A DNA stretch of 64,000 bases, from the NCBI GenBank assembly GCA_963789265.1, contig CAWBKB010000005.1:736001-800000 (forward strand). Reading direction: 5' to 3'. Shown one piece after another: positions 5,331 to 33,850 of this stretch. A model generated the notes under the pieces. That model had not been told where the DNA came from and did not search any database. It saw only the letters and a list, made by a program, of their open reading frames with translations. Every line of letters begins with the position of its first letter. Position 1 is the first letter of the stretch. The position numbers and the translations under genes were made by a program. Source of the DNA: an uncultured delta proteobacterium (GTDB lineage: Bacteria > Desulfobacterota > Desulfomonilia > Desulfomonilales > Desulfomonilaceae).

Positions 5331-5384
5331 TGTCGTGGCGAGGAGCGACGTCCCGCGGCCCGCGGGATTCGCAATGACAATCTC
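5331..5384. repeat. Degenerate REP-like palindrome (GTCATTGCGAG/CTCGCAATGAC family)
   Basis: TGTCGTGGCGAGGAGC...TTCGCAATGACAATCT resembles the copies at 22987-23119 and 37675-37747. Confidence 0.5.
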
Positions 5385-5443
5385 TTCCCTGGCACAACTG
5401 AGTGCCCGGCCACTGTAGCGAGATCCGGCGTGGGATGAGCAGG

Positions 5444-6979
5444 CTAAAGCCTTACTGACGGCTTAGGTCTCTTTGCTAGATAATCCAGCCGGTTGAGGGC
5501 GTTCACCATGGCTTTTGCAGAAGCGACGAGTATGTCCTCGTGCGCGCCCTTTCCCACTGCTATGCTGCCGGCTTCTTCGAGGCGAATGGTCGCTTCGCCG
5601 AGGGCGTCAGTTCCGTCGGTGATGGCACTGATCGAGAACCGCAAGAGCTTAGGATTACGGCCCGTCAGCCTCATGATTGTGTTGTAAGCGGCATCGACGG
5701 GGCCGTTGCCCAGTTCGGCTCCATGATGCTCAAGCCCTTCTATTTCCATGCTTACTGTCGCAGTAGGAACGACATGCGTGCCGGACATGATGGTGACGGA
5801 GAGCAACTTGTAGGTCTCTGCAATCCGGAGGACTTCTTCCGCTATGATTGCTTCAATGTCCTCATCGAAGATGGTCTTCTTGCGGTCGGCAAGATTCTTG
5901 AATCGCTCGAAGGTGCGATTGATCTCCTCTTCGGTCAGTTGGTAACCCAATGATTTGATTCGCTCCCTTAGAGCATGGCGACCTGAATGCTTTCCAAGCA
6001 CTAATGAGGATTTCGCGATCCCGACTGATTCGGGGTCCATGATTTCGTATGTGGACTTTTCTTTGATAACGCCGTCCTGATGTATGCCGGCTTCATGAGC
6101 AAAGGCGTTGGCGCCGACTATGGCCTTATTGGGCTGGACCGTGATCCCCGTGATAGCGGTGACAAGGCGGCTGGTGTGGAAGATTTGCTGAGTGACTATA
6201 CCGGTGTGCACGCCGAATACGTCTTGCCTAGTTTTGAGGATCATGGCTATTTCTTCAAGGGAGGCGTTTCCGGCACGCTCGCCGATTCCGTTGATGGTAG
6301 CCTCCACTTGTCTGGCGCCGGCCCTGATAGCCGACAAAGAATTTGCAACCGCGAGTCCTAGGTCGTTGTGACAGTGGACTGAGATAACGACATTCTCGAT
6401 GCCCTTTATCGTGTCGCGAACCGTCCGAATTAAGCCGGCGATCTCCTCCGGGTAAGAATAACCAACCGTATCGGGGATATTGATGGTCCCCGCTCTCTCG
6501 TTGACAGCGGTTTGTATTACGCGGCAAAGGAAAGCGGGATCGCTGCGGGTGGCGTCCTCGCAGGAGAACTCCACCCAATCCGACAGAGACCGAGCCAAAC
6601 GCACGGCTTGGCCGGCACGGTCGACGACCTCGTCGCGCGACATTTTCAGTTTATGTTCAAGGTGTATGTCACTAGTGGCGATGAATGTGTGGATGCCCGG
6701 AAGAGGGGCGTCCTCCACCGCGCGCCAGGCGGTTTCTATATCTTCTGCTGCCGCGCGGGCCAGGCCCACGACGCGGACGGTCTTGACTTCGCGGGCGATC
6801 TTGCTCACAGCCTCTCGATCACCTTCAGAACTCGCGGGAAAGCCCGCTTCAATGATGTCTACTCCAAGATTCTCCAATTGCCTTGCCAACTGAAGTTTTT
6901 CCTGCTGGTTCATAGTAGCGCCGGGTGACTGCTCGCCGTCCCGGAGAGTGGTGTCGAATATCAGAACTCTTTCCGACAT
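5444..6979 (-). CDS. leuA: 2-isopropylmalate synthase
   Basis: DTTLRDGEQ, HCHNDLGLA, GERAGN, HQDG, GKHSGR motifs and a C-terminal regulatory domain (GNGPVDA). Confidence 0.95.
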   Translation of the reverse strand: MSERVLIFDTTLRDGEQSPGATMNQQEKLQLARQLENLGVDIIEAGFPASSEGDREAVSKIAREVKTVRVVGLARAAAEDIETAWRAVEDAPLPGIHTFIATSDIHLEHKLKMSRDEVVDRAGQAVRLARSLSDWVEFSCEDATRSDPAFLCRVIQTAVNERAGTINIPDTVGYSYPEEIAGLIRTVRDTIKGIENVVISVHCHNDLGLAVANSLSAIRAGARQVEATINGIGERAGNASLEEIAMILKTRQDVFGVHTGIVTQQIFHTSRLVTAITGITVQPNKAIVGANAFAHEAGIHQDGVIKEKSTYEIMDPESVGIAKSSLVLGKHSGRHALRERIKSLGYQLTEEEINRTFERFKNLADRKKTIFDEDIEAIIAEEVLRIAETYKLLSVTIMSGTHVVPTATVSMEIEGLEHHGAELGNGPVDAAYNTIMRLTGRNPKLLRFSISAITDGTDALGEATIRLEEAGSIAVGKGAHEDILVASAKAMVNALNRLDYLAKRPKPSVRL

Positions 6980-25825: not shown

Positions 25826-25914
25826 AGGATTGTCCAAGAGACAGCCAGGTGGCTCCAACAGGAACGAGCCTCAACCTGGAGTGAAGAACCAGGAATGAAC
25901 AAAACGACCAATAG

Positions 25915-26071
25915 TTCACCGCGGAGATCGCCGAGAACGCGGAGACCAGACACGGCAAATTTCGGTTTTTGACAGCAAAAGAAATACCGACCCGACTGTA
26001 CGCACCGATAACTCATACGGAAATGAATGAGCAATTACCCTCTCTGCGATCTCAGCGCACTCCGCGGTGAA
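25915..26071. repeat. REP-like inverted repeat pair (CACCGCGGAG family)
   Basis: TTCACCGCGGAGATCGCCGAGAACGCGGAGA (25915-25945) and TCTCTGCGATCTCAGCGCACTCCGCGGTGAA (26041-26071) are inverted copies. Confidence 0.65.
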
Positions 26072-26101
26072 TCTCCCATTGTCCGTTGAAGGGTCACAAA
26101 A

Positions 26102-26906: not shown

Positions 26907-27349
26907 GGCACGGCCCTAGAAAGCTGCTGCGCAAGCTTGTCACCAGCGGGACCCTCCCGAATTCGTCGCGCCATGGTGCCTGGTGTGTCGACATATCTGA
27001 GAGGCTGCAAAGCAAAACGGCTTAGCAGGTCATACTGTTATAAGCCTGGGGCGCAATAGAGCAGAGGACGGACTTTCAGCGCAGCACTTCAAGTAGCGTA
27101 TGAGAGTGTTTAGATGTTGCCGCCTCCCACAGAAAGTAAGACGCGAAGGGGCCGAAGCTTCGGTACAAAAGGGGTCTATCTTGTGCTGCGCACACGCCCG
27201 TAAAGGGGAAATCCTTGATGATAGGAGGAATGGCTCTCAAACGGCGGCCTCTATTGACCATAATTTCGTGTTGCCGAAACAGCTTGACAAGCCCGACGAC
27301 CTAGATTAACAGGTCGCGTGGGAGAATGCGCTCTTCGGCGGAGGGAGGT

Positions 27350-28801
27350 ATGGGGTTTCTGCTGCCAGAATGGGAGATGGAATGGATCCTTGTCAACAAT
27401 CCCGCCCTTTTAGATCCTGGATCTGAAATTCTTAACCTCGAAGTAGTTGCCCAACAGTACGATTTGCCCCGGAGCGGAGGGTATGTGGACATCCTGTGCC
27501 GTTTCCCAGAGGGCTTGTTGGCAGTGGAACTGAAGAATGAATTTGTCGACGATTCCTCTGTTATCACACACCAGCTCAACAAGTATCTCGCGGACCTGTT
27601 GCACTACTCCAATAATTCCGAAGAAGTGAGATGTTTACTTGTCTCCACTCACGGGTTTTCACGACAGGTACAAGAGCTGGCCACTGCTCGTTCAGTGAGG
27701 TTGCAGACCATCTCTGTCGAGAACTTGCTCGAACAGGCCTGGCGTCTGAATACATCTGCGGATACTCTGTCGTCGGCAAAGGCGCGGCTTTTGCAGCGGC
27801 GTGTTGGATTGAAAACTTTGGACAAGGCCAAGGAACTCGTCTGCGGAAGACCTGATGCACGGTATCAACGGGATGTGGCCAGCATCGATCACTTCATAAG
27901 TTCCGGCAAGCACGACGCGTACGGATTGCGGCAGCTCGCTCGCGGTTTGAAGGAAGTGAGTCGTCGAGCCCCCATCATGGCACACAAAGTGTTCGATGAA
28001 GACGACGGAAATACCCTTAGTGGGGAGGAAGAAAAGTGGTTTTGGTTCTTCTATAGCGTGCTTGATAGACGAGCGAACGCTGCAACCTTCGTTAAGGCGA
28101 AAGAGGCACTTGAACGATGTAGACTTTTCCTGCCCCAAGAGCTCGTCCGGCTCGTGGAAACTACTTCGAATGCGGATGCAGTGGACCGCGTCTTTAGAAT
28201 TTTGCGAGATAGTGAGTTTCCTCTTGCCGCTGATTCTATCAGGCGCGACCAAGCCATGCCTTCGAGCATTGTGGATGCAGCTATGTATTTGAGCCGATTC
28301 GAGTTTTCGATGGACAATATGTTAGAATATTTTACTCAGGCCCTTTCCAGGTCCGAAGACTTAGCCGACACAATCATGGCACACTTGAGGAAGCACGTTT
28401 ATGGCGTAGGTCCGAGGATTGCGGCGCAGATCGTCCGAGGCTTGTGCCTCAAATCGGGCTGGAAGGTGACCATGTCTTCCCCGGTTCATCTGGAACAGTG
28501 CGGGTTTAACGAAACTTTCGCCGGCCCCGGCCGGTTAGGTCTCGTGTCCTCGCCGCAGAGTTACCGGAGGGAGCTGAAGCGTTTTGCGGACTCGTATCTC
28601 GGAGGGAACTGCGGTGTAATTAGCCATGCGCTCTGGTTCATCCGGAAGAGATTTTGTCTTCGGCCGAAGCGCTGTGATGAGTGCCCCGTGGCTGGCTTCT
28701 GCAATTATACTCGTTCTATGCTGCTGCGAAGCTACGACCGTAAGATGCTTGGCGCCCAACCCTCGTTGTTTTCGCGTATGGAGGAGGCCGTTCCAACCTG
28801 A
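27350..28801 (+). CDS. NucS/RecB-type PD-(D/E)XK nuclease fused to an HhH-GPD/endonuclease III-like domain with a [4Fe-4S] motif
   Basis: N-term E...GYVDIL...AVELK...QLNKY. C-term helix-hairpin-helix HVYGVGPRIA and C-x5-C-x2-C-x5-C (CLRPKRCDECPVAGFC). Start taken at the ATG after GGAGGGAGGT. Confidence 0.7.
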   Translation: MGFLLPEWEMEWILVNNPALLDPGSEILNLEVVAQQYDLPRSGGYVDILCRFPEGLLAVELKNEFVDDSSVITHQLNKYLADLLHYSNNSEEVRCLLVSTHGFSRQVQELATARSVRLQTISVENLLEQAWRLNTSADTLSSAKARLLQRRVGLKTLDKAKELVCGRPDARYQRDVASIDHFISSGKHDAYGLRQLARGLKEVSRRAPIMAHKVFDEDDGNTLSGEEEKWFWFFYSVLDRRANAATFVKAKEALERCRLFLPQELVRLVETTSNADAVDRVFRILRDSEFPLAADSIRRDQAMPSSIVDAAMYLSRFEFSMDNMLEYFTQALSRSEDLADTIMAHLRKHVYGVGPRIAAQIVRGLCLKSGWKVTMSSPVHLEQCGFNETFAGPGRLGLVSSPQSYRRELKRFADSYLGGNCGVISHALWFIRKRFCLRPKRCDECPVAGFCNYTRSMLLRSYDRKMLGAQPSLFSRMEEAVPT

Positions 28802-30441
28802 TGGTCAAAAGAAGTCATCTAGACCGGGTACGAATTCTTGTCTTGTCAGACCTCCACTACGCAACTGACACTGGCAAATGGGAGGAAGTCTTTGCCACGG
28901 AGGGGACAAGGGAAACCGCTGCATACTCCTTCACCAACATTGAGCGCCTTCTCGGATTCATACTCAATGTGGTGAAAAGGGAATTGGACCACGTTATCAT
29001 ATTGGGAGATCTAACGCTTTTAGGCTCCCGAGACGACTTCAAGTTAGCCAAGGAGGACCTCCTCCGGTTTCAGGAGGAGCTCAAGAATGAAGGGATTACC
29101 ATAAACGCAGCCGAGGGAGAATTGGATCCCGCGATGTTCACTATCATCCCTGGCAACCACGATTTGAATGAGCCTACCGTCGGCAAGTGGACGCGCCGGC
29201 GGAGGATGGTAACTGGAGGTATGAGATCATTAATCAGCCGCGTCACGAAAAAGCCGATTGTGGCACCTCCGTCCAGCCCCGAAAAGATGTCGGAACTACT
29301 ACAGCTTTTCCGCGAATATTTTGGTGAAACCCTCTGGGATCGAAACCAGGAATCCAAGCAGTTTGGGAGTCTTGAGAAGATATTGCGCCATACTAACGTG
29401 TCACTCGTCCCATTAAATAGTTGTGTTCCGGCGCCAGTGCATCTTTTAGGAATAAACGCTCGTGGCCGAATAGATCAAGATCAAAGAGTGAAATATACAG
29501 AGTTGGGGCGCAATGGAAATGGCTCACGGCTCCGTATCGCTCTTGCCCATCATTTTCCACTTCCTATTCCGGTAAAACGCGATTCATTAACGGAGCCATC
29601 CCTGGAACTTGAAGATGCCAGTGACGTCATCCACTCTTTATACGGAGGTGCAAAATTCGCTGCTTTTTTGTGCGGACACAAGCACTCGGATTTCATTTGG
29701 TGCAACATCGCAGGAGTGCCGAAGGTAGACCGCTGTATGCCAATAATCTGTGTCGGTACGACTACCTTTCAGGCACCTCACCGAGATCACATTTGCTGCC
29801 TGATCGAATTGGAAGGTCGCAACAAGCTCAAGTTCAGCGATGAAAACACTTTGATCAAGGTCCACCATTATGAGTCCAGGAAACTTGCTGCCTCCCTCGT
29901 GAATACATTCGAGTTCTCGCCTGAGCCGGGCACACATAAAGAATTCACTAGTCTGACGGCCAGATGGATCAGAGAGGTGGAGAAAGCACCCGGGAGTAAG
30001 ATAAAACTCATAGACTTCAGATCTGAAGAATCCTGGAAGTTACTCAAGCCACTGCATCAAGAAACTGAGGCTGCAAGGCTGGAATTCAGTCGCTGGGGGA
30101 CTGTCTTCTACGGAGACACTCAAGGAGCGATTGAGGATTTTGAAATATTAGTAGGTGGCGAGTATCGTAAGGGTCCAATTTGCCTCATTTTCTCATGTAG
30201 GGCGCGGGATGGAGAGCCTGAACTAAAGATAAGCTGCAAAGAAAGTTCTAATCCAATGACTGATTTTGAATCGGTGTCACAAAACGAGTTTAGAAAAAAC
30301 TTCTTTCTGAATTATATTTCCCCGGATACCAAGCTACTGGTTTCTTTTAGATCAAGTCGTCTTGCCGAGGTGGTGCTCCATTGTGTCCTTGTTCTTGAAT
30401 TTCCCATAGTACGGTCGGAGACAGCCTATGACAATGCCTGA
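28801..30441 (+). CDS. Calcineurin-like metallophosphoesterase with an unknown C-terminal domain
   Basis: All five motifs present: SDLH, GDLT, GNHD, HH, GHKH; start overlaps the upstream stop (TGATG). Confidence 0.8.
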   Translation: MVKRSHLDRVRILVLSDLHYATDTGKWEEVFATEGTRETAAYSFTNIERLLGFILNVVKRELDHVIILGDLTLLGSRDDFKLAKEDLLRFQEELKNEGITINAAEGELDPAMFTIIPGNHDLNEPTVGKWTRRRRMVTGGMRSLISRVTKKPIVAPPSSPEKMSELLQLFREYFGETLWDRNQESKQFGSLEKILRHTNVSLVPLNSCVPAPVHLLGINARGRIDQDQRVKYTELGRNGNGSRLRIALAHHFPLPIPVKRDSLTEPSLELEDASDVIHSLYGGAKFAAFLCGHKHSDFIWCNIAGVPKVDRCMPIICVGTTTFQAPHRDHICCLIELEGRNKLKFSDENTLIKVHHYESRKLAASLVNTFEFSPEPGTHKEFTSLTARWIREVEKAPGSKIKLIDFRSEESWKLLKPLHQETEAARLEFSRWGTVFYGDTQGAIEDFEILVGGEYRKGPICLIFSCRARDGEPELKISCKESSNPMTDFESVSQNEFRKNFFLNYISPDTKLLVSFRSSRLAEVVLHCVLVLEFPIVRSETAYDNA

Positions 30442-31483
30442 ACAGCCAGTTTATGCACCTGAGGAAGGTTTAGCGCCATTTGCGGGAAACACGATTACCG
30501 AAGTCTATAACACGCTCAAGAGATTTTTTGAAAATAAGAAAGATGCTACGGTATTGCACGTTCTCACCCTCGTCCGGTCTCCAGAATATCTTGTCCCGGA
30601 TGAACAGGTTATTTCTGCTCAAGAGGTTAAGGACGCCGTGCGCGGCCTCACTGATCAACCAGAACGAGAACAGTTCAAATTCAATCACTGGGATAGGATT
30701 TCGAGCTTTGGAAGACCTTTTTACAAAGTTGATCAGTTTGAAAACGCGGGAAAAGCTCTCTGCGAAGAATTAGAGAATAGGGAAGCAAGGACGTCGGCGA
30801 GTGCAGCGTTTGTAGTGACCGACCCTCTAAAAGACCTTGCCTCTAGGGATAGTGACACGCCGCCTCCATTTTTTTGCATGGGTCAATTTTGGCTAGACCA
30901 CCTAGGTCGGCTGGGGATAACGGGCGTTTATAGGCGGCAGGAGATGTCTTCATGGTGGGTTGTAAATATCTGGGAACTCGCCACTTACAGGGACAGGATG
31001 TGTGAGTACCTGAAGAGCTGTGGCTTCCAGGTCAGGGAGGGATCTGTGGCTACTCTGGCCGTTTTGGCTTACTGGCGAAGCAAGAAAAAATCTCCGGTTC
31101 CACTTCCCGATTTTGACAGACCCGAATTACGCGGCCAGATAGGGTCTTCATTGCTAGCGACCTTCGATGGTGACAGTGCGGCCGCCGGATCGTTGGAAAA
31201 GATGCTTCGGGAAAAGGCCAAAACGATAACAAAAAGCAATGCTCCGAGAGGTGGCCTCAAAACCTTGTTGGATCTTCTGTCTGCGGTCGAGTCGTATTTC
31301 AAGATGAAAAATGAGGAAATCTTTTATGAGCTGTTCCGTCAAGTGAAGGAAGCGGATCAGTATCATTCGCAATTCTCGCAGCCAGTCTTTCGAGCCATAA
31401 CAGTGGATAGCCTTGCCCAGTGTTACGAGAAACTAGCTGATACGTTCGAGACCCTCAAAGGAAAACTTGAGCAACAGCAATGA
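30428..31483 (+). CDS. Divergent thymidylate synthase/dNMP hydroxymethylase-fold protein
   Basis: PFFCMGQFW...RLGITGVYRRQEMSSWWVVN aligns by eye to the ThyA core PCHAFFQFY...[20 protein letters not shown], with R, D/E and N at identical spacing. Confidence 0.55.
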   Translation: MTMPEQPVYAPEEGLAPFAGNTITEVYNTLKRFFENKKDATVLHVLTLVRSPEYLVPDEQVISAQEVKDAVRGLTDQPEREQFKFNHWDRISSFGRPFYKVDQFENAGKALCEELENREARTSASAAFVVTDPLKDLASRDSDTPPPFFCMGQFWLDHLGRLGITGVYRRQEMSSWWVVNIWELATYRDRMCEYLKSCGFQVREGSVATLAVLAYWRSKKKSPVPLPDFDRPELRGQIGSSLLATFDGDSAAAGSLEKMLREKAKTITKSNAPRGGLKTLLDLLSAVESYFKMKNEEIFYELFRQVKEADQYHSQFSQPVFRAITVDSLAQCYEKLADTFETLKGKLEQQQ

Positions 31484-31520
31484 ACGTGAACAATATTGTA
31501 GAATGGTCATGGGAGGAAAA

Positions 31521-32612
31521 ATGGAAAAAACAACCATGCCCTTCGCGCGTGAACTGAAATTGGAGCTCACAAATGCGTGCGGCTTGGCCTGCGCCCATTG
31601 CTCGACAGATTCCGGTTCCACTGCATCTCTTTGCATTCCTACGGCTGATGCAATTCGAATAGTGTGCCAGTTTCGGGAGCTAGGTGGTGAGCGGCTCATT
31701 TTGACCGGTGGTGAGCCGCTTCAACATCCCGAGATTGATCTCATTGCTGCTTTTTCAAAGCAAATAGGTCTTCAAGTCGTGGTATATACGACCGGACTTG
31801 ATATCAATTCGGACGTATCCAGGGACAGACTGCTACACCTGGCCCCAATCATAGATGGATTTGTCTTCTGCCTACATGCCGCTGTACCTGATGTGCACGA
31901 CCACCTTACAGGGGTGCGTGGCAGTTTTGAAGCTACTGTTTCCGCCATCAGCCTTGTAATGAGATGGGGTAAGCCCGTCTGCATTCATCACGTACCACTT
32001 CAACCAAATCGGGGCGAGTTTCTTTCGTTGTGTACCTTTGTTATGAGGATGGGGTTGCGCTCTCTGAAGATACTAAGATTCGTCCCCCAAGGACGCGGCG
32101 AAAGAAACGAGGCGAGACTCGCCCTGCGTTGGTTGGACGTAGACAAGTTAGCCGAAGAAATCGCTATGGCCCTTGTTCGTTTTCCAGCCTTGAACATCGA
32201 CCTCGGTGCCCCCTATTCGATGTTAGGCCCTTGCCGCCAGACACTCTGCGGTGCGGGTTGGAGAACGTTGTCCATAGGTGCAAATTTGGAATGTTATCCT
32301 TGTGATGGCTTCAAGTCGATTGCAGGTGGAGCATTTAGAGAACCGCTCGCAAGTCGGGCTCTTCAAGTATTCTGGACTGAGTCGGCAACCCTGTTATCGG
32401 TCCGCAGCGCCGCCACTCGAATGCAAATGCTGGGAAGCACGGGTTGTCTTGCGCAGAAGTTTTTAGCTAACGGTGATTTTTATGGAGTGGAAGAAGACCC
32501 GCTGACAACTTACTTTAGTCAAGATTTCCGCCAGGCCGTTTCTCACCAGGCCAAAGTAATGACCACTTATTTGCCGCTAGCGGGCTTACGGCCCCCAGAT
32601 TTTTCAGGTTAG
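31521..32612 (+). CDS. Radical SAM protein with SPASM/twitch domain
   Basis: ELTNACGLACAHC (CxxxCxxC), LTGGEPL, CGAG...YPC. Start uncertain (31467-31536). Confidence 0.85.
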   Translation: MEKTTMPFARELKLELTNACGLACAHCSTDSGSTASLCIPTADAIRIVCQFRELGGERLILTGGEPLQHPEIDLIAAFSKQIGLQVVVYTTGLDINSDVSRDRLLHLAPIIDGFVFCLHAAVPDVHDHLTGVRGSFEATVSAISLVMRWGKPVCIHHVPLQPNRGEFLSLCTFVMRMGLRSLKILRFVPQGRGERNEARLALRWLDVDKLAEEIAMALVRFPALNIDLGAPYSMLGPCRQTLCGAGWRTLSIGANLECYPCDGFKSIAGGAFREPLASRALQVFWTESATLLSVRSAATRMQMLGSTGCLAQKFLANGDFYGVEEDPLTTYFSQDFRQAVSHQAKVMTTYLPLAGLRPPDFSG

Positions 32613-32861
32613 GCAAGGACTGAAATGGGCCTGCCGCTGACTATCGAAACACGCCAATTGGAGGTTGTGGCTCAGTAGGAGTCCTTATACGTTCTGCAAG
32701 CCTGACTTTGGACCAGTTCCTTGCCGCAATGAAAAACGTCTTATAAGAATTTCACCTTATCTTTTGCCATCTCCGGCAACTGGTCCCATTAGCCCATATA
32801 GCGTGTTACGAATGATGCAGTTCCCTGCGGCTCGCGAGGTCATGACATTTTCGAGCTTAGG

Positions 32862-33122
32862 CTAACCATTATTGTGAAAGCCACTGGCAGTTTTCAGCAT
32901 TTCTTCTTTGGCGGCCATAAGAACGCCCTCACCTGCAAGGAGGCTCTGAGAGTCTTGTTCCGCGGTGACCTGCTTGAAGGTTTGGGTGTAGTAGTGGAGA
33001 GGTCCCAAGAGACTCAGAAGAGTGAGAAGCGCAATATTCCTCCAACTAAGAAAGGCTTGGACATCGAATCTGTTGTCCAGAATGGCCTGTGCCACATTTA
33101 TGAGACTATTCAGGTATTCCAT
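32862..33122 (-). CDS. Hypothetical protein (86 aa)
   Basis: GGAGG SD before MEYLNSLIN; plausible helical protein. Confidence 0.6.
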   Translation of the reverse strand: MEYLNSLINVAQAILDNRFDVQAFLSWRNIALLTLLSLLGPLHYYTQTFKQVTAEQDSQSLLAGEGVLMAAKEEMLKTASGFHNNG

Positions 33123-33335
33123 TCTGCCTCCTTCCTTCGACTTGAGACGACAGCGAGATCCTGCAAAAGTTCCATACTTGTTAGGACAGACGTCTATAAG
33201 CGAAATAGAGTTCAAAATCTTCATAGCGAGTCCAATACTCTGAGCCTCGATGACACAAATGTTTACGGTAGCTCTGCCAACAAGATAGATTTGTGTAATG
33301 CCAAGGATTTTTCTTGCCTCCTACCGAATAGAATA

Positions 33336-33351
33336 AGCAACCACCATGCCA
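33336..33351 (-). promoter_or_regulatory. Possible sigma54 promoter
   Basis: Minus strand TGGCATGGTGGTTGCT (GG-N10-GC), ~215 bp upstream of the 33122 ATG. Confidence 0.45.
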
Positions 33352-33850
33352 AACTGATATCTATCTAATTTCAACGGCGATTACGCCAATACACAGTTAA
33401 GAGATGGGGAAGATGGCTAGCATTTCGCAAGACTACGCGAGCATGATTCTTGCGATTTGCAAGGTGCAACAGGGCATAGCGATACAATGAAGCCGCGAAT
33501 TCCGGGGACACCATACTCAATTGCCCTCTCTTCGGTTTTTTCCGGTCCTATCCCGGCCCTGTATTTGGGATTTCTCGTCTGCTCCATGGATTGGCTCCAG
33601 GAAACGGCCGCTCACACGCGAACCGAACCGCCTGGGCCCTCTTCCAAGGCGTAATGCTCGGGAACGCCCGTTTCGGGGCTTGTCCCTCTCCGCCGGTATG
33701 TATGCAAGCAACGCGGGCGGAAAAAGCCTTCGATTCCTCCGATCTGCGATATGCCCCTAAGCGTTCTTGTCAATCCCAAGATGTTCCGGCATAGTATGTG
33801 CGTTTACATTCTCTTGCTACGATACGGAAAGAAATCGAGCTTAATACAAC

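Follow-up and report, generated by a model that had tools for sequence, protein, structure and literature searches.

A NucS-like nuclease fused to a non-canonical endonuclease III-like domain: a candidate modification-sensing endonuclease from a radical SAM-linked gene cassette

F0 is a gene on the forward strand of a 64,000-nucleotide stretch of DNA, referred to here as the window, from an uncultured delta proteobacterium of the family Desulfomonilaceae (assembly GCA_963789265.1, contig CAWBKB010000005.1, positions 736,001 to 800,000). The predicted structure of its product confirms that a nuclease domain of the NucS type is joined to a complete endonuclease III (EndoIII) fold, in which the canonical catalytic residues appear to have been lost. 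F0 is the first of four translationally coupled genes, a cassette overlooked in an earlier note on this DNA that was made by a model from the sequence alone. We put the probability at about 0.5 that F0 is a modification-sensing DNA endonuclease of the END type and the executor of this mobile cassette. END nucleases consist of a nuclease fused to an inactive EndoIII/Ogg domain that sets the range of hypermodified phages they restrict (Yee et al., bioRxiv 2025, PMC12191111); this preprint, like the other reports cited below, is drawn on in part, and statements on it hold for those parts.

Residue numbers count from the longest open reading frame of F0 (27326..28801, forward strand, 491 residues), in which the ATG at 27350 corresponds to M9. 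The AlphaFold2 model, calculated with the family alignment as input, is confident, with a predicted local distance difference test (pLDDT) score of 89.5 and a predicted template modelling score of 0.86. In VIA comparisons residues 14-132 superimpose on residues 126-233 of P. abyssi NucS (PDB entry 2vld) with a Z-score of 15.5 and a root mean square deviation (RMSD) of 1.7 Å for 107 aligned residues, while residues 196-467 superimpose on residues 1-211 of E. coli EndoIII (PDB entry 2abk) with a Z-score of 14.3 and an RMSD of 3.4 Å for 207 aligned residues. The earlier note had made its proposal depend on a structural match to the helix-hairpin-helix (HhH)-GPD fold, and the second superposition provides it. 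A Foldseek search against the PDB places EndoMS/NucS on top (5gke, E-value 4e-4; 2vld, 4.8e-4), followed by EndoIII, OGG, MutY and MagIII (4uob, 5.6e-3); sequence searches of the PDB with F0 (by phmmer) and with the family profile gave nothing meaningful.

The model lacks the N-terminal domain of NucS and contains the full EndoIII scaffold, including the iron-sulfur cluster loop. F0 thus shares with NucS/EndoMS the C-terminal PD-(D/E)xK domain and its D...ExK...Q...Y motif, but not the N-terminal domain for mismatch binding and dimerisation, and its score against the NCBIfam NucS equivalog is far below the cut-off (E-value 6.9e-7; 28.6 bits versus 216). With Nth and MutY it shares the whole fold (207 of the 211 residues of 2abk), the HhH hairpin and the C-terminal four-Cys loop. 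It differs from these enzymes in about 60 extra inserted residues, in the fused nuclease, in an Arg at the position of the catalytic Lys, in the lack of the Asp and in the lack of a match to Pfam HhH-GPD (PF00730); HhH-GPD is also absent from the 25 families, out of 31, that are listed for the 34 proteins of the F0 family.

Across 34 homologues with 31-62% identity, there is no variation at residues D55, E68, K70, Q83, Y87, G360, G362, R364, C450, C453 or C459, and at least 90% of the sequences have C444; the conservation of these residues is repeated in an alignment of 38 C-terminal sequences. Because they are invariant across 34 divergent homologues, the F0 motifs go beyond chance. This bears out the earlier note in its reading of a nuclease motif D...ELK...Q...Y (D55, E68-L69-K70, Q83 and Y87), of the HhH motif GVGPRIA (residues 360-366, preceded by Y359) and of a cluster motif of four cysteines (C444, C450, C453 and C459). 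When the 34 family members are scanned singly, 16 match Pfam NucS_C (best E-value 4.3e-8) and 15 match EndIII_4Fe-2S (best 1.3e-4); the F0 protein of the window itself matches only EndIII_4Fe-2S, with an E-value of 0.095. The cysteines of F0 are spaced C-X5-C-X2-C-X5-C, as compared with C-X6-C-X2-C-X5-C in the aligned canonical Nth proteins, and R440 and K441 adjoin the first of them. Both DNA-binding elements, the HhH hairpin and the cluster loop, are kept. A sister branch formed by P0068 (399 residues) and P0073 (136 residues) has a decayed HhH hairpin (GVGPRIA) and DRRANA motif and retains the NucS-like domain and the Cys loop, which would represent a further step in the degeneration of the glycosylase scaffold.

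In Nth the catalytic Lys lies in the HhH motif and the catalytic Asp about 18 residues further on. At the Lys position F0 has R364, which is invariant in the F0 alignments, and no VDTH motif is found, the corresponding stretch being L389-E-Q-C-G-F-N395; both points had been seen in the earlier note. A direct hhalign comparison of the whole F0 family with canonical Nth proteins of related genomes is not significant (probability 1%), but the two can be connected through a bridging family. A search of 1.84 billion representatives with the C-terminal profile of 38 sequences yields 39 proteins with E-values of 1e-3 or lower, of which 28 have E-values of 1e-30 or lower. The weak tail of this search (P0074, P0075, P0078 and P0079, E-values 9e-6 to 8e-4) comes from a family whose proteins have about 250 residues and are labelled 'iron-sulfur cluster loop' or endonuclease III in the sources, and which has canonical GxGxK and (S/T)xD(V/R)H motifs. 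One of its members, P0078, matches Pfam HhH-GPD with an E-value of 3.6e-7, and another, P0079 (381 residues), carries a NucS_C domain ahead of an EndoIII-like domain with the canonical Lys and Asp.

In hhalign comparisons an alignment of 25 proteins of the bridging family matches the F0 domain with a probability of 95.7% (E-value 9.8e-9) and Nth with a probability of 97.4% (E-value 9e-12), the Lys and Asp being matched in the latter case. In the former, R364 is opposite the Lys of GxGxK, and the catalytic Asp (ISPDVHV) is opposite a gap in F0 between G393 and F394. E390 is opposite a second invariant Asp of the bridging family (the D of IDIS), and N395 lies two positions past the missing Asp. 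HMMER alignments to P0075 and P0078 put the Asp opposite C392 or F394, so that the register is uncertain by two residues, but no alignment of either kind puts an acidic residue at the position of the catalytic Asp. Since R364 pairs with the Lys, and the Asp with a gap or a non-acidic residue, the canonical Lys/Asp pair is, as judged from these alignments, lost from F0. The bridging proteins are the nearest detectable relatives of its C-terminal domain and share with it the RLG(L/F)I, W(Y/E)IG and C..C.....C features, and in P0079 also the order of the domains. Unlike F0, they have kept the Lys and the Asp and look like active glycosylase/lyases. The NucS_C-type module of P0079 is found again, with identities of 60-86%, ahead of a wide variety of C-terminal regions (P0119-P0205, 209-473 residues), and looks like a widely shuffled nuclease module.

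Other residues of the EndoIII-like domain are also invariant, namely H220, the motif WFWxFYSVxDRR (238-249), Q368, R371, E390, N395, N428 and H434, with E390 and N395 invariant in all 38 sequences of the C-terminal alignment. The invariance of E390, N395, H220, D247, R248, R249, N428 and H434 makes a non-canonical chemistry possible, for example that of a monofunctional glycosylase. F0 might accordingly be an active enzyme in which E390, perhaps with N395 and D247, stands in for the Asp, and in which the NucS-type domain cuts at or near the resulting abasic site. MutY and other monofunctional HhH-GPD glycosylases do without the Lys, and the positions of E390, opposite an invariant Asp, and of N395 would suit an active site; the titles of MutY PDB entries show that Asn146, two positions after the catalytic Asp144, has been studied in that enzyme. 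Defence glycosylases do exist, as exemplified by Brig1, Brig3 and Dag1/2, and the related fusion P0079 has both canonical residues. Nevertheless the position of the catalytic Asp is taken in the F0 family by a gap, by C/S/T or by F, and we know of no characterised family in which a Glu two to four residues upstream substitutes in this way (no search was made). The nuclease fusions of this kind that have been studied were, moreover, judged to be inactive as glycosylases (PMC12191111). An active glycosylase is therefore unlikely, but it is an explanation to be taken seriously.

A domain that reads a base rather than excising it, as proposed in the earlier note, is consistent with the fold, the Arg at the Lys site, the Asp without a counterpart and the precedent of the END nucleases (PMC12191111), whereas the invariant E390 and N395 and the other polar residues, which could make a non-canonical active site, leave this part of the proposal in balance. 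Both the architecture and the idea that a reader licenses a nuclease are already a published concept, because the END nucleases include a tested NucS-like fusion. In a reciprocal search the sensor was found fused to a 'NucS'-like PD-DExK nuclease, and one metagenomic NucS-like PD-DExK-iEndoIII fusion, END-Mag, was cloned and restricted phages with modified G (PMC12191111). F0 corresponds to the END nucleases in the fusion of a nuclease to an HhH-GPD domain and in the loss of the catalytic residues, as mapped by profile alignment. END-Mag, like F0, combines a NucS-type nuclease with an EndoIII/Ogg-fold domain in which the catalytic residues of a glycosylase are missing, but it is most similar to cluster-free archaeal Ogg enzymes, whereas F0 has the complete EndoIII scaffold with the four-Cys loop. 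The invariant Glu and Asn beside the missing Asp likewise set F0 apart from the END nucleases as they are described.

The three genes that follow F0 in the window, designated B, C and D, resemble nucleotide-handling enzymes, with all assignments falling below curated cut-offs. The ATG of B overlaps the stop codon of F0, C overlaps B by 14 nucleotides and D overlaps C by 17 nucleotides. B matches Pfam Metallophos (E-value 2e-7) and the NCBIfam anti-phage phosphoesterase DS9_1 (5.9e-18; 65 bits versus a cut-off of 420); DS-9 is a validated anti-phage system in the DefensePredictor preprint. C is assigned as thymidylate-synthase-like on the basis of TIGR03283 (1.2e-5; 25 bits versus a cut-off of 174.55) and of its nearest ESM Atlas cluster (score 0.92), 30% of whose members carry PF00303. 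Its homologues comprise one database protein (P0042) and a neighbour of F0 in the metagenomic locus L027 (blastp, 2e-10), the latter without the candidate catalytic Cys of C (in FFCMGQF), and the AlphaFold2 model of C from three sequences is poor (pLDDT 58.8). D matches Pfam Radical_SAM (1.1e-10) and TIGR04053 (1.4e-22, below cut-off), and its best NCBIfam matches, all below cut-off, are of the SPASM type. An assignment of D as a prokaryotic viperin was rejected, since the PADLOC pVip match (4.9e-10) spans only residues 33-124, the generic radical S-adenosylmethionine (SAM) core. PDB sequence searches with C, B and the F3 profile (see below) gave nothing useful, and a complex prediction for F0 (residues 9-470) with B (residues 1-535) scored 0.00 and gives no verdict. 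A near-identical protein from another assembly, P0085 (933 residues), which shares a 90% cluster with the F0 protein of the window, continues in frame from F0 into B, the metallophosphoesterase, and the two parts join just ahead of the F0 stop. Whether natural or due to an assembly indel, this fusion agrees with the ATGA-type overlap between F0 and B in the window.

The link with a radical SAM gene is not particular to the window. The neighbourhoods of F0 homologues were surveyed in 7 loci from species genomes (Bathyarchaeota, Methanoperedens, Sifarchaeum and an uncultured archaeon) and in 50 loci from metagenomes, the nearest bacterial homologues (P0002-P0008) lying outside this survey. Clustering of the surrounding open reading frames shows that the family designated F1 is the same radical SAM/SPASM family as D of the window. 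Thirteen loci extend at least 4 kb from F0 in both directions, and F1 occurs within 6 kb of F0 in 10 of them, the three loci that lack it (L050, L051 and L054) belonging to one divergent clade. Of the 30 loci that extend this far on one side, F1 is present in 22, F2 in 17 and F3 in 13. F2 is a dCTP-deaminase/dUTPase-like protein of about 280 residues (PF22769, E-values down to 2e-16; TIGR02274, down to 1.8e-23, below cut-off) that ends in a hydrophobic C-terminal helix and is regarded as membrane-anchored. F3 (213 residues) is related to proteins in methanogens in which it is fused to the mobile domain of phosphoenolpyruvate (PEP) synthase (E-values down to 1e-30); because its paralogues carry this fused PEP-utilising domain, F3 is taken to be an ATP-grasp module of the PEP-synthase type. 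F4 (125 residues) is probably a winged-helix protein, with a single weak Penicillinase_R match (E-value 0.034), and F7 is a helical protein of 104 residues without a family match. F4 was also considered as the phosphohistidine swivel domain that the F3 ATP-grasp lacks, but the F4 alignment has no such motif and is winged-helix-like, and this reading was rejected. Further F3 paralogues (E-values about 1e-50) occur in 4 of 401 genomes searched (L081-L084, in the phylum of genome G013), where they are fused to the PEP-utilising mobile (phosphohistidine) domain and stand alone, without F0, F1 or F2 nearby; by their sequence these are small PEP-synthase-like proteins.

The order F0-B-C-D of the window is repeated in L027 (blastp E-values of 5e-30, 2e-10 and 3.5e-27 for B, C and D, respectively). 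In a quick maximum-likelihood tree of 34 F0 proteins the window protein groups with that of L027, with a Shimodaira-Hasegawa-like approximate likelihood ratio (SH-aLRT) support of 98, both being long branches. The module types are clustered on this tree, with 9 changes as compared with a mean of 15.1 for shuffled labels and values as low in 0 of 200 shuffles, although related sequences share module labels anyway. As read from these neighbourhoods, F0 is almost always accompanied by one of two modules, consisting of radical SAM, dCTP-deaminase-like and ATP-grasp proteins in archaea, or of radical SAM, metallophosphoesterase and thymidylate-synthase-like proteins as in the window. Given that members of its family nearly always have a linked radical SAM gene, F0 probably does not act alone. 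No description of a radical SAM-linked F0 cassette was found in the open-access literature searched.

In the mechanism proposed here the EndoIII-like domain of F0 would bind duplex DNA and flip a non-canonical base into its pocket, leaving the base unexcised. The substrates of EndoIII itself and the neighbouring enzymes suggest that this base would probably be a pyrimidine. Its recognition would license the N-terminal NucS-type domain, in which the D-ExK-Q-Y site is intact, to cut the DNA. The folds of the partners, which are mostly those of enzymes handling pyrimidine deoxynucleotides, indicate that they could remodel or deplete the modified nucleotides or bases of an invader or synthesise a modified pyrimidine. 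Most likely they would act on the modified pyrimidine nucleotides or bases of the invader, either enabling recognition by F0 or cutting the supply of modified nucleotides. By analogy, their role would be comparable in logic to that in the Brig3-BapA operon, where a glucose hydrolase helper remodels the modified base and so widens the range of the defence glycosylase Brig3 (10.64898/2026.02.25.707755). In both cases a base-acting enzyme would serve a defence protein that recognises DNA bases, but the folds are, as far as known, unrelated, and the helpers of F0 are a radical SAM enzyme, a phosphoesterase and a thymidylate-synthase-like protein.

The same set of partners would also suit a DNA hypermodification system that resembles restriction-modification and separates self from non-self, as does Dpd, or that is comparable to phage thymidine hypermodification. 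The partners would then build a modified pyrimidine for the DNA of the host or of a replicating invader, and F0 would be either the reader that tells marked from unmarked DNA or itself a base-modifying transferase with a restriction nuclease attached. The partner set parallels the dUMP hydroxymethylase, DNA kinase (5-HMUDK), aGPT-Pplase and radical SAM isomerase of the phage pathway (Lee et al., Nucleic Acids Research 2021, PMC8989533): in both, an HhH glycosylase-like protein occurs with thymidylate-synthase-family, phosphotransfer and radical SAM enzymes. C is thymidylate-synthase-like, F2 is dCTP-deaminase-like and F3 is related to the ATP-grasp domain of PEP synthase, and the genes are tightly linked and translationally coupled. 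The cassette differs from the phage pathway in the lack of any detectable sequence relation, in the nuclease on F0 and in its hosts, which are cells. Against a hypermodification system stand the assignments of the partners below cut-off and the putative catalytic Cys of C that is not kept in L027. No Pfam aGPT-Pplase match is listed for F0 or its homologues, and in a fold search of the viral models of BFVD, where F0 finds nothing at E-values of 1e-3 or lower, a Mycobacterium phage amino acid:DNA transferase appears only at rank 48 (E-value 0.18, template modelling score 0.43). The kinship to such transferases suggested in the earlier note comes down to this weak match; because a viral EndoIII ranks far above it (rank 8, E-value 0.019), it lends no specific support to a transferase role of F0. 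We further know of no modified base in the hosts of the cassette (no search was made). A hypermodification system is thus a doubtful explanation.

More of a long shot is a 'write-and-read' form of immunity, in which the radical SAM and pyrimidine enzymes (the thymidylate-synthase-like protein and phosphoesterase in the window, the dCTP-deaminase-like protein and ATP-grasp in archaea) would make a non-canonical pyrimidine deoxynucleotide upon infection that is incorporated into the replicating DNA of the invader; the [4Fe-4S] reader of F0 would then recognise this mark and license the nuclease to destroy the DNA. A mirror version would have constitutive self-marking of the host DNA, with F0 as the restriction arm.

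Comparison with the nearest related genome (G001) shows that the cassette is an insertion. The flanks in G001 are 87-88% identical to those of the window; the left flank ends at window position 26914 and is followed by about 280 bp and then by a 70-nucleotide match (80%) to window positions 32611-32680. Because these flanks join across about 280 bp without F0, the 5.7-kb four-gene cassette is regarded as inserted, and within it the guanine-plus-cytosine (GC) content falls to 0.48-0.51 from about 0.53. The empty site of G001 holds an intact small gene (L086, G001:C6, about 5377-5656), the product of which starts with MKFVVTLDRDEDGMW and looks HicB-like when read by eye. The window keeps only the last 55 nucleotides or so of this gene, so that the cassette seems to have replaced most of it. 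No word of 10 nucleotides or more that could represent a target-site duplication is shared by the cassette ends.

The F0 family is, as far as sequence searches tell, tiny, sharply bounded and mostly archaeal: when 5.8 billion protein clusters were searched, 41 proteins reached E-values of 1e-3 or lower, and apart from the self-match these are 33-63% identical. Of 122 genomes of its class only that of the window has F0, in single copy, and the 6 other genomes of its genus (completeness 76-98%) lack it. The genome of the window is bacterial, with LolA and MMPL in the flanks, and a genome-wide PF00730 search finds two canonical HhH-GPD genes but does not find F0. Weak PF00730 matches in three related genomes were considered as relatives of F0 and rejected as Ada-AlkA-type proteins. 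By tblastn F0 has no match in 50,697 phage and 72,556 plasmid records, and 51 pattern matches in IMG/VR viral contigs did not yield a single confirmed relative. Genes for ThsB-like TIR proteins, SLATT proteins and integrases adjoin the F0 system in other loci. Taken together, the cassette is rare, horizontally mobile and probably directed against viruses.

A ThsB-like TIR gene (PF08937, E-values down to 3e-28) and an unassigned gene of 213-284 residues (F9) occur in seven loci (L005, L024, L025, L026, L038, L039 and L056); in six of these F9 is the gene immediately upstream of F0, in the same orientation, and in L005 it lies downstream on the other strand. A SLATT/DUF4231 gene (7.6e-23) stands beside them in L024, L025, L038, L039 and L056. 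These TIR-SLATT genes may be a separate defence system or an extension of the F0 system.

It is very unlikely that F0 is a housekeeping or stress repair enzyme, an EndoIII/NucS hybrid for oxidised or deaminated pyrimidines that happens to lie beside unrelated metabolic genes. Both parent folds are those of repair enzymes and the genes flanking the cassette in the window are housekeeping genes, but the host already has its two canonical HhH-GPD genes, F0 is absent from the 121 other genomes of the class that were searched, and it is part of an insertion, has none of the canonical catalytic residues and is linked to radical SAM genes across distant archaea and bacteria. Hardly credible is a pocket that binds a free modified nucleotide made by the neighbours, which like a second messenger would switch the nuclease on as in nucleotide-activated abortive-infection effectors: the match of the F0 model to the queuosine-5'-monophosphate hydrolase DUF2419/QNG1 (Z-scores of 12.0 for 7ugk and 11.2 for 7ulc) and the nucleotide-enzyme folds of all partners would fit, but this match is no better than many to DNA glycosylases, and the DNA-contacting HhH hairpin, the cluster loop and R440/K441 are the best conserved parts.

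Several observations weigh against F0 being an END-type nuclease. The mapping of its residues depends on profile alignments, two of which, from HMMER, lie two positions apart, and the invariant E390, two to four residues before the missing Asp, would suit the pocket of an enzyme as well, as would N395 and the other polar residues. The likeness to the tested END proteins is one of architecture and not of sequence comparison, and the F0 family is characterised by sequence and model alone. In the parts of the preprint used here END nucleases are presented as single genes, whereas F0 is tied to biosynthesis-like enzymes in a multi-gene cassette (PMC12191111). If a modified nucleotide were made in the host, a modification-dependent nuclease encoded in the same operon would be self-toxic unless regulated. 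PADLOC finds nothing significant for F0, B or C, and no other recognisable defence gene adjoins the locus in the window. Finally, a clade of five F0 proteins (L044, L047, L050, L051 and L054) has no radical SAM neighbour. The members of this clade have 439-459 residues, with a shorter N-terminal nuclease and an extra C-terminal tail, and their contexts are archaeal and chromosomal (PCNA, Cdc6 and thymidylate kinase), with an HNH gene directly upstream in L050.

The features of the locus are collected in the table below. The gene boundaries given for F0 in the earlier note are right, because the ATG at 27350 follows the Shine-Dalgarno-like GGAGGGAGG and coincides with the start of the two database copies, P0001 and P0086, each of which has 483 residues and begins at the Met of this codon.

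Features of the F0 locus, in window coordinates
Feature	Position	Strand	Basis or remark
F0, NucS-like nuclease fused to a non-canonical EndoIII-like [4Fe-4S] domain	27350..28801	+	483 residues
Shine-Dalgarno-like GGAGGGAGG, just 5' of the probable start ATG 27350	27338..27346	+	read in the sequence
PD-(D/E)xK nuclease domain, NucS C-terminal type, residues 14-132	27365..27721	+	VIA, Pfam, invariant columns
Helical linker, residues 133-195, variable, mostly deleted in many archaeal homologues	27722..27910	+	alignment, AlphaFold2 secondary structure
EndoIII-like HhH-GPD domain, residues 196-467	27911..28726	+	VIA, invariant columns, hhalign
HhH element Y359-GVGPRIAAQIVRGLCLK, with R364 at the lyase-Lys site	28400..28453	+	alignments, hhalign
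L389-E-Q-C-G-F-N395, in place of the canonical xxVD(T/V)H	28490..28510	+	hhalign, HMMER
Four-Cys iron-sulfur loop C444-X5-C450-X2-C453-X5-C459	28655..28702	+	sequence, alignment, Pfam
B, calcineurin-like metallophosphoesterase, 546 residues (below cut-off)	28801..30441	+	Pfam, NCBIfam
C, thymidylate-synthase-like protein, 351 residues (weak assignment)	30428..31483	+	NCBIfam, ESM Atlas
D, radical SAM/SPASM enzyme, 381 residues, TTG start, CGLACAHC cluster motif (below cut-off)	31467..32612	+	Pfam, NCBIfam
Inserted cassette, approximate extent, relative to the nearest related genome	26915..32610	.	comparison with G001, GC profile
3' remnant of the small gene found whole at the empty site in G001	32627..32683	+	comparison with G001

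Two further observations concern the surroundings of the cassette in the window. An open reading frame of 164 residues without a Pfam match lies just 3' of it (32874-33368, forward strand). In the intergenic region between a metallo-beta-lactamase gene and a DUF3786 gene, two stretches of about 35 nucleotides (25909-25945 and 26041-26074) match dozens of times, with 85-97% identity and on both strands, in all five related genomes searched; they look like a dispersed repeat of the genus, of the kind known as repetitive extragenic palindromes or miniature inverted-repeat transposable elements (REP/MITE).

Nucleases that sense modified bases through a dead DNA-glycosylase domain were described only in 2025 (PMC12191111) and attract interest for two reasons, as defences against phages and as tools with which to detect DNA modifications. 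To these the F0 family adds a version built on an iron-sulfur EndoIII scaffold, a distribution centred on archaea with transfer into bacteria and, above all, a conserved partnership with radical SAM and nucleotide-metabolism-like proteins. It is the gene neighbourhood that is new, the architecture and the idea of the mechanism being already known. F0 also offers a clean natural test of whether a nearby Glu can functionally replace the conserved Asp of the HhH-GPD enzymes. If the partners do remodel or synthesise modified pyrimidines, nucleotide chemistry would be linked to sensing at the level of the DNA, a combination not described in the literature searched, and the cassette could lead to a DNA base modification, or to a reaction of radical SAM enzymes on nucleotides, that has not been described before.

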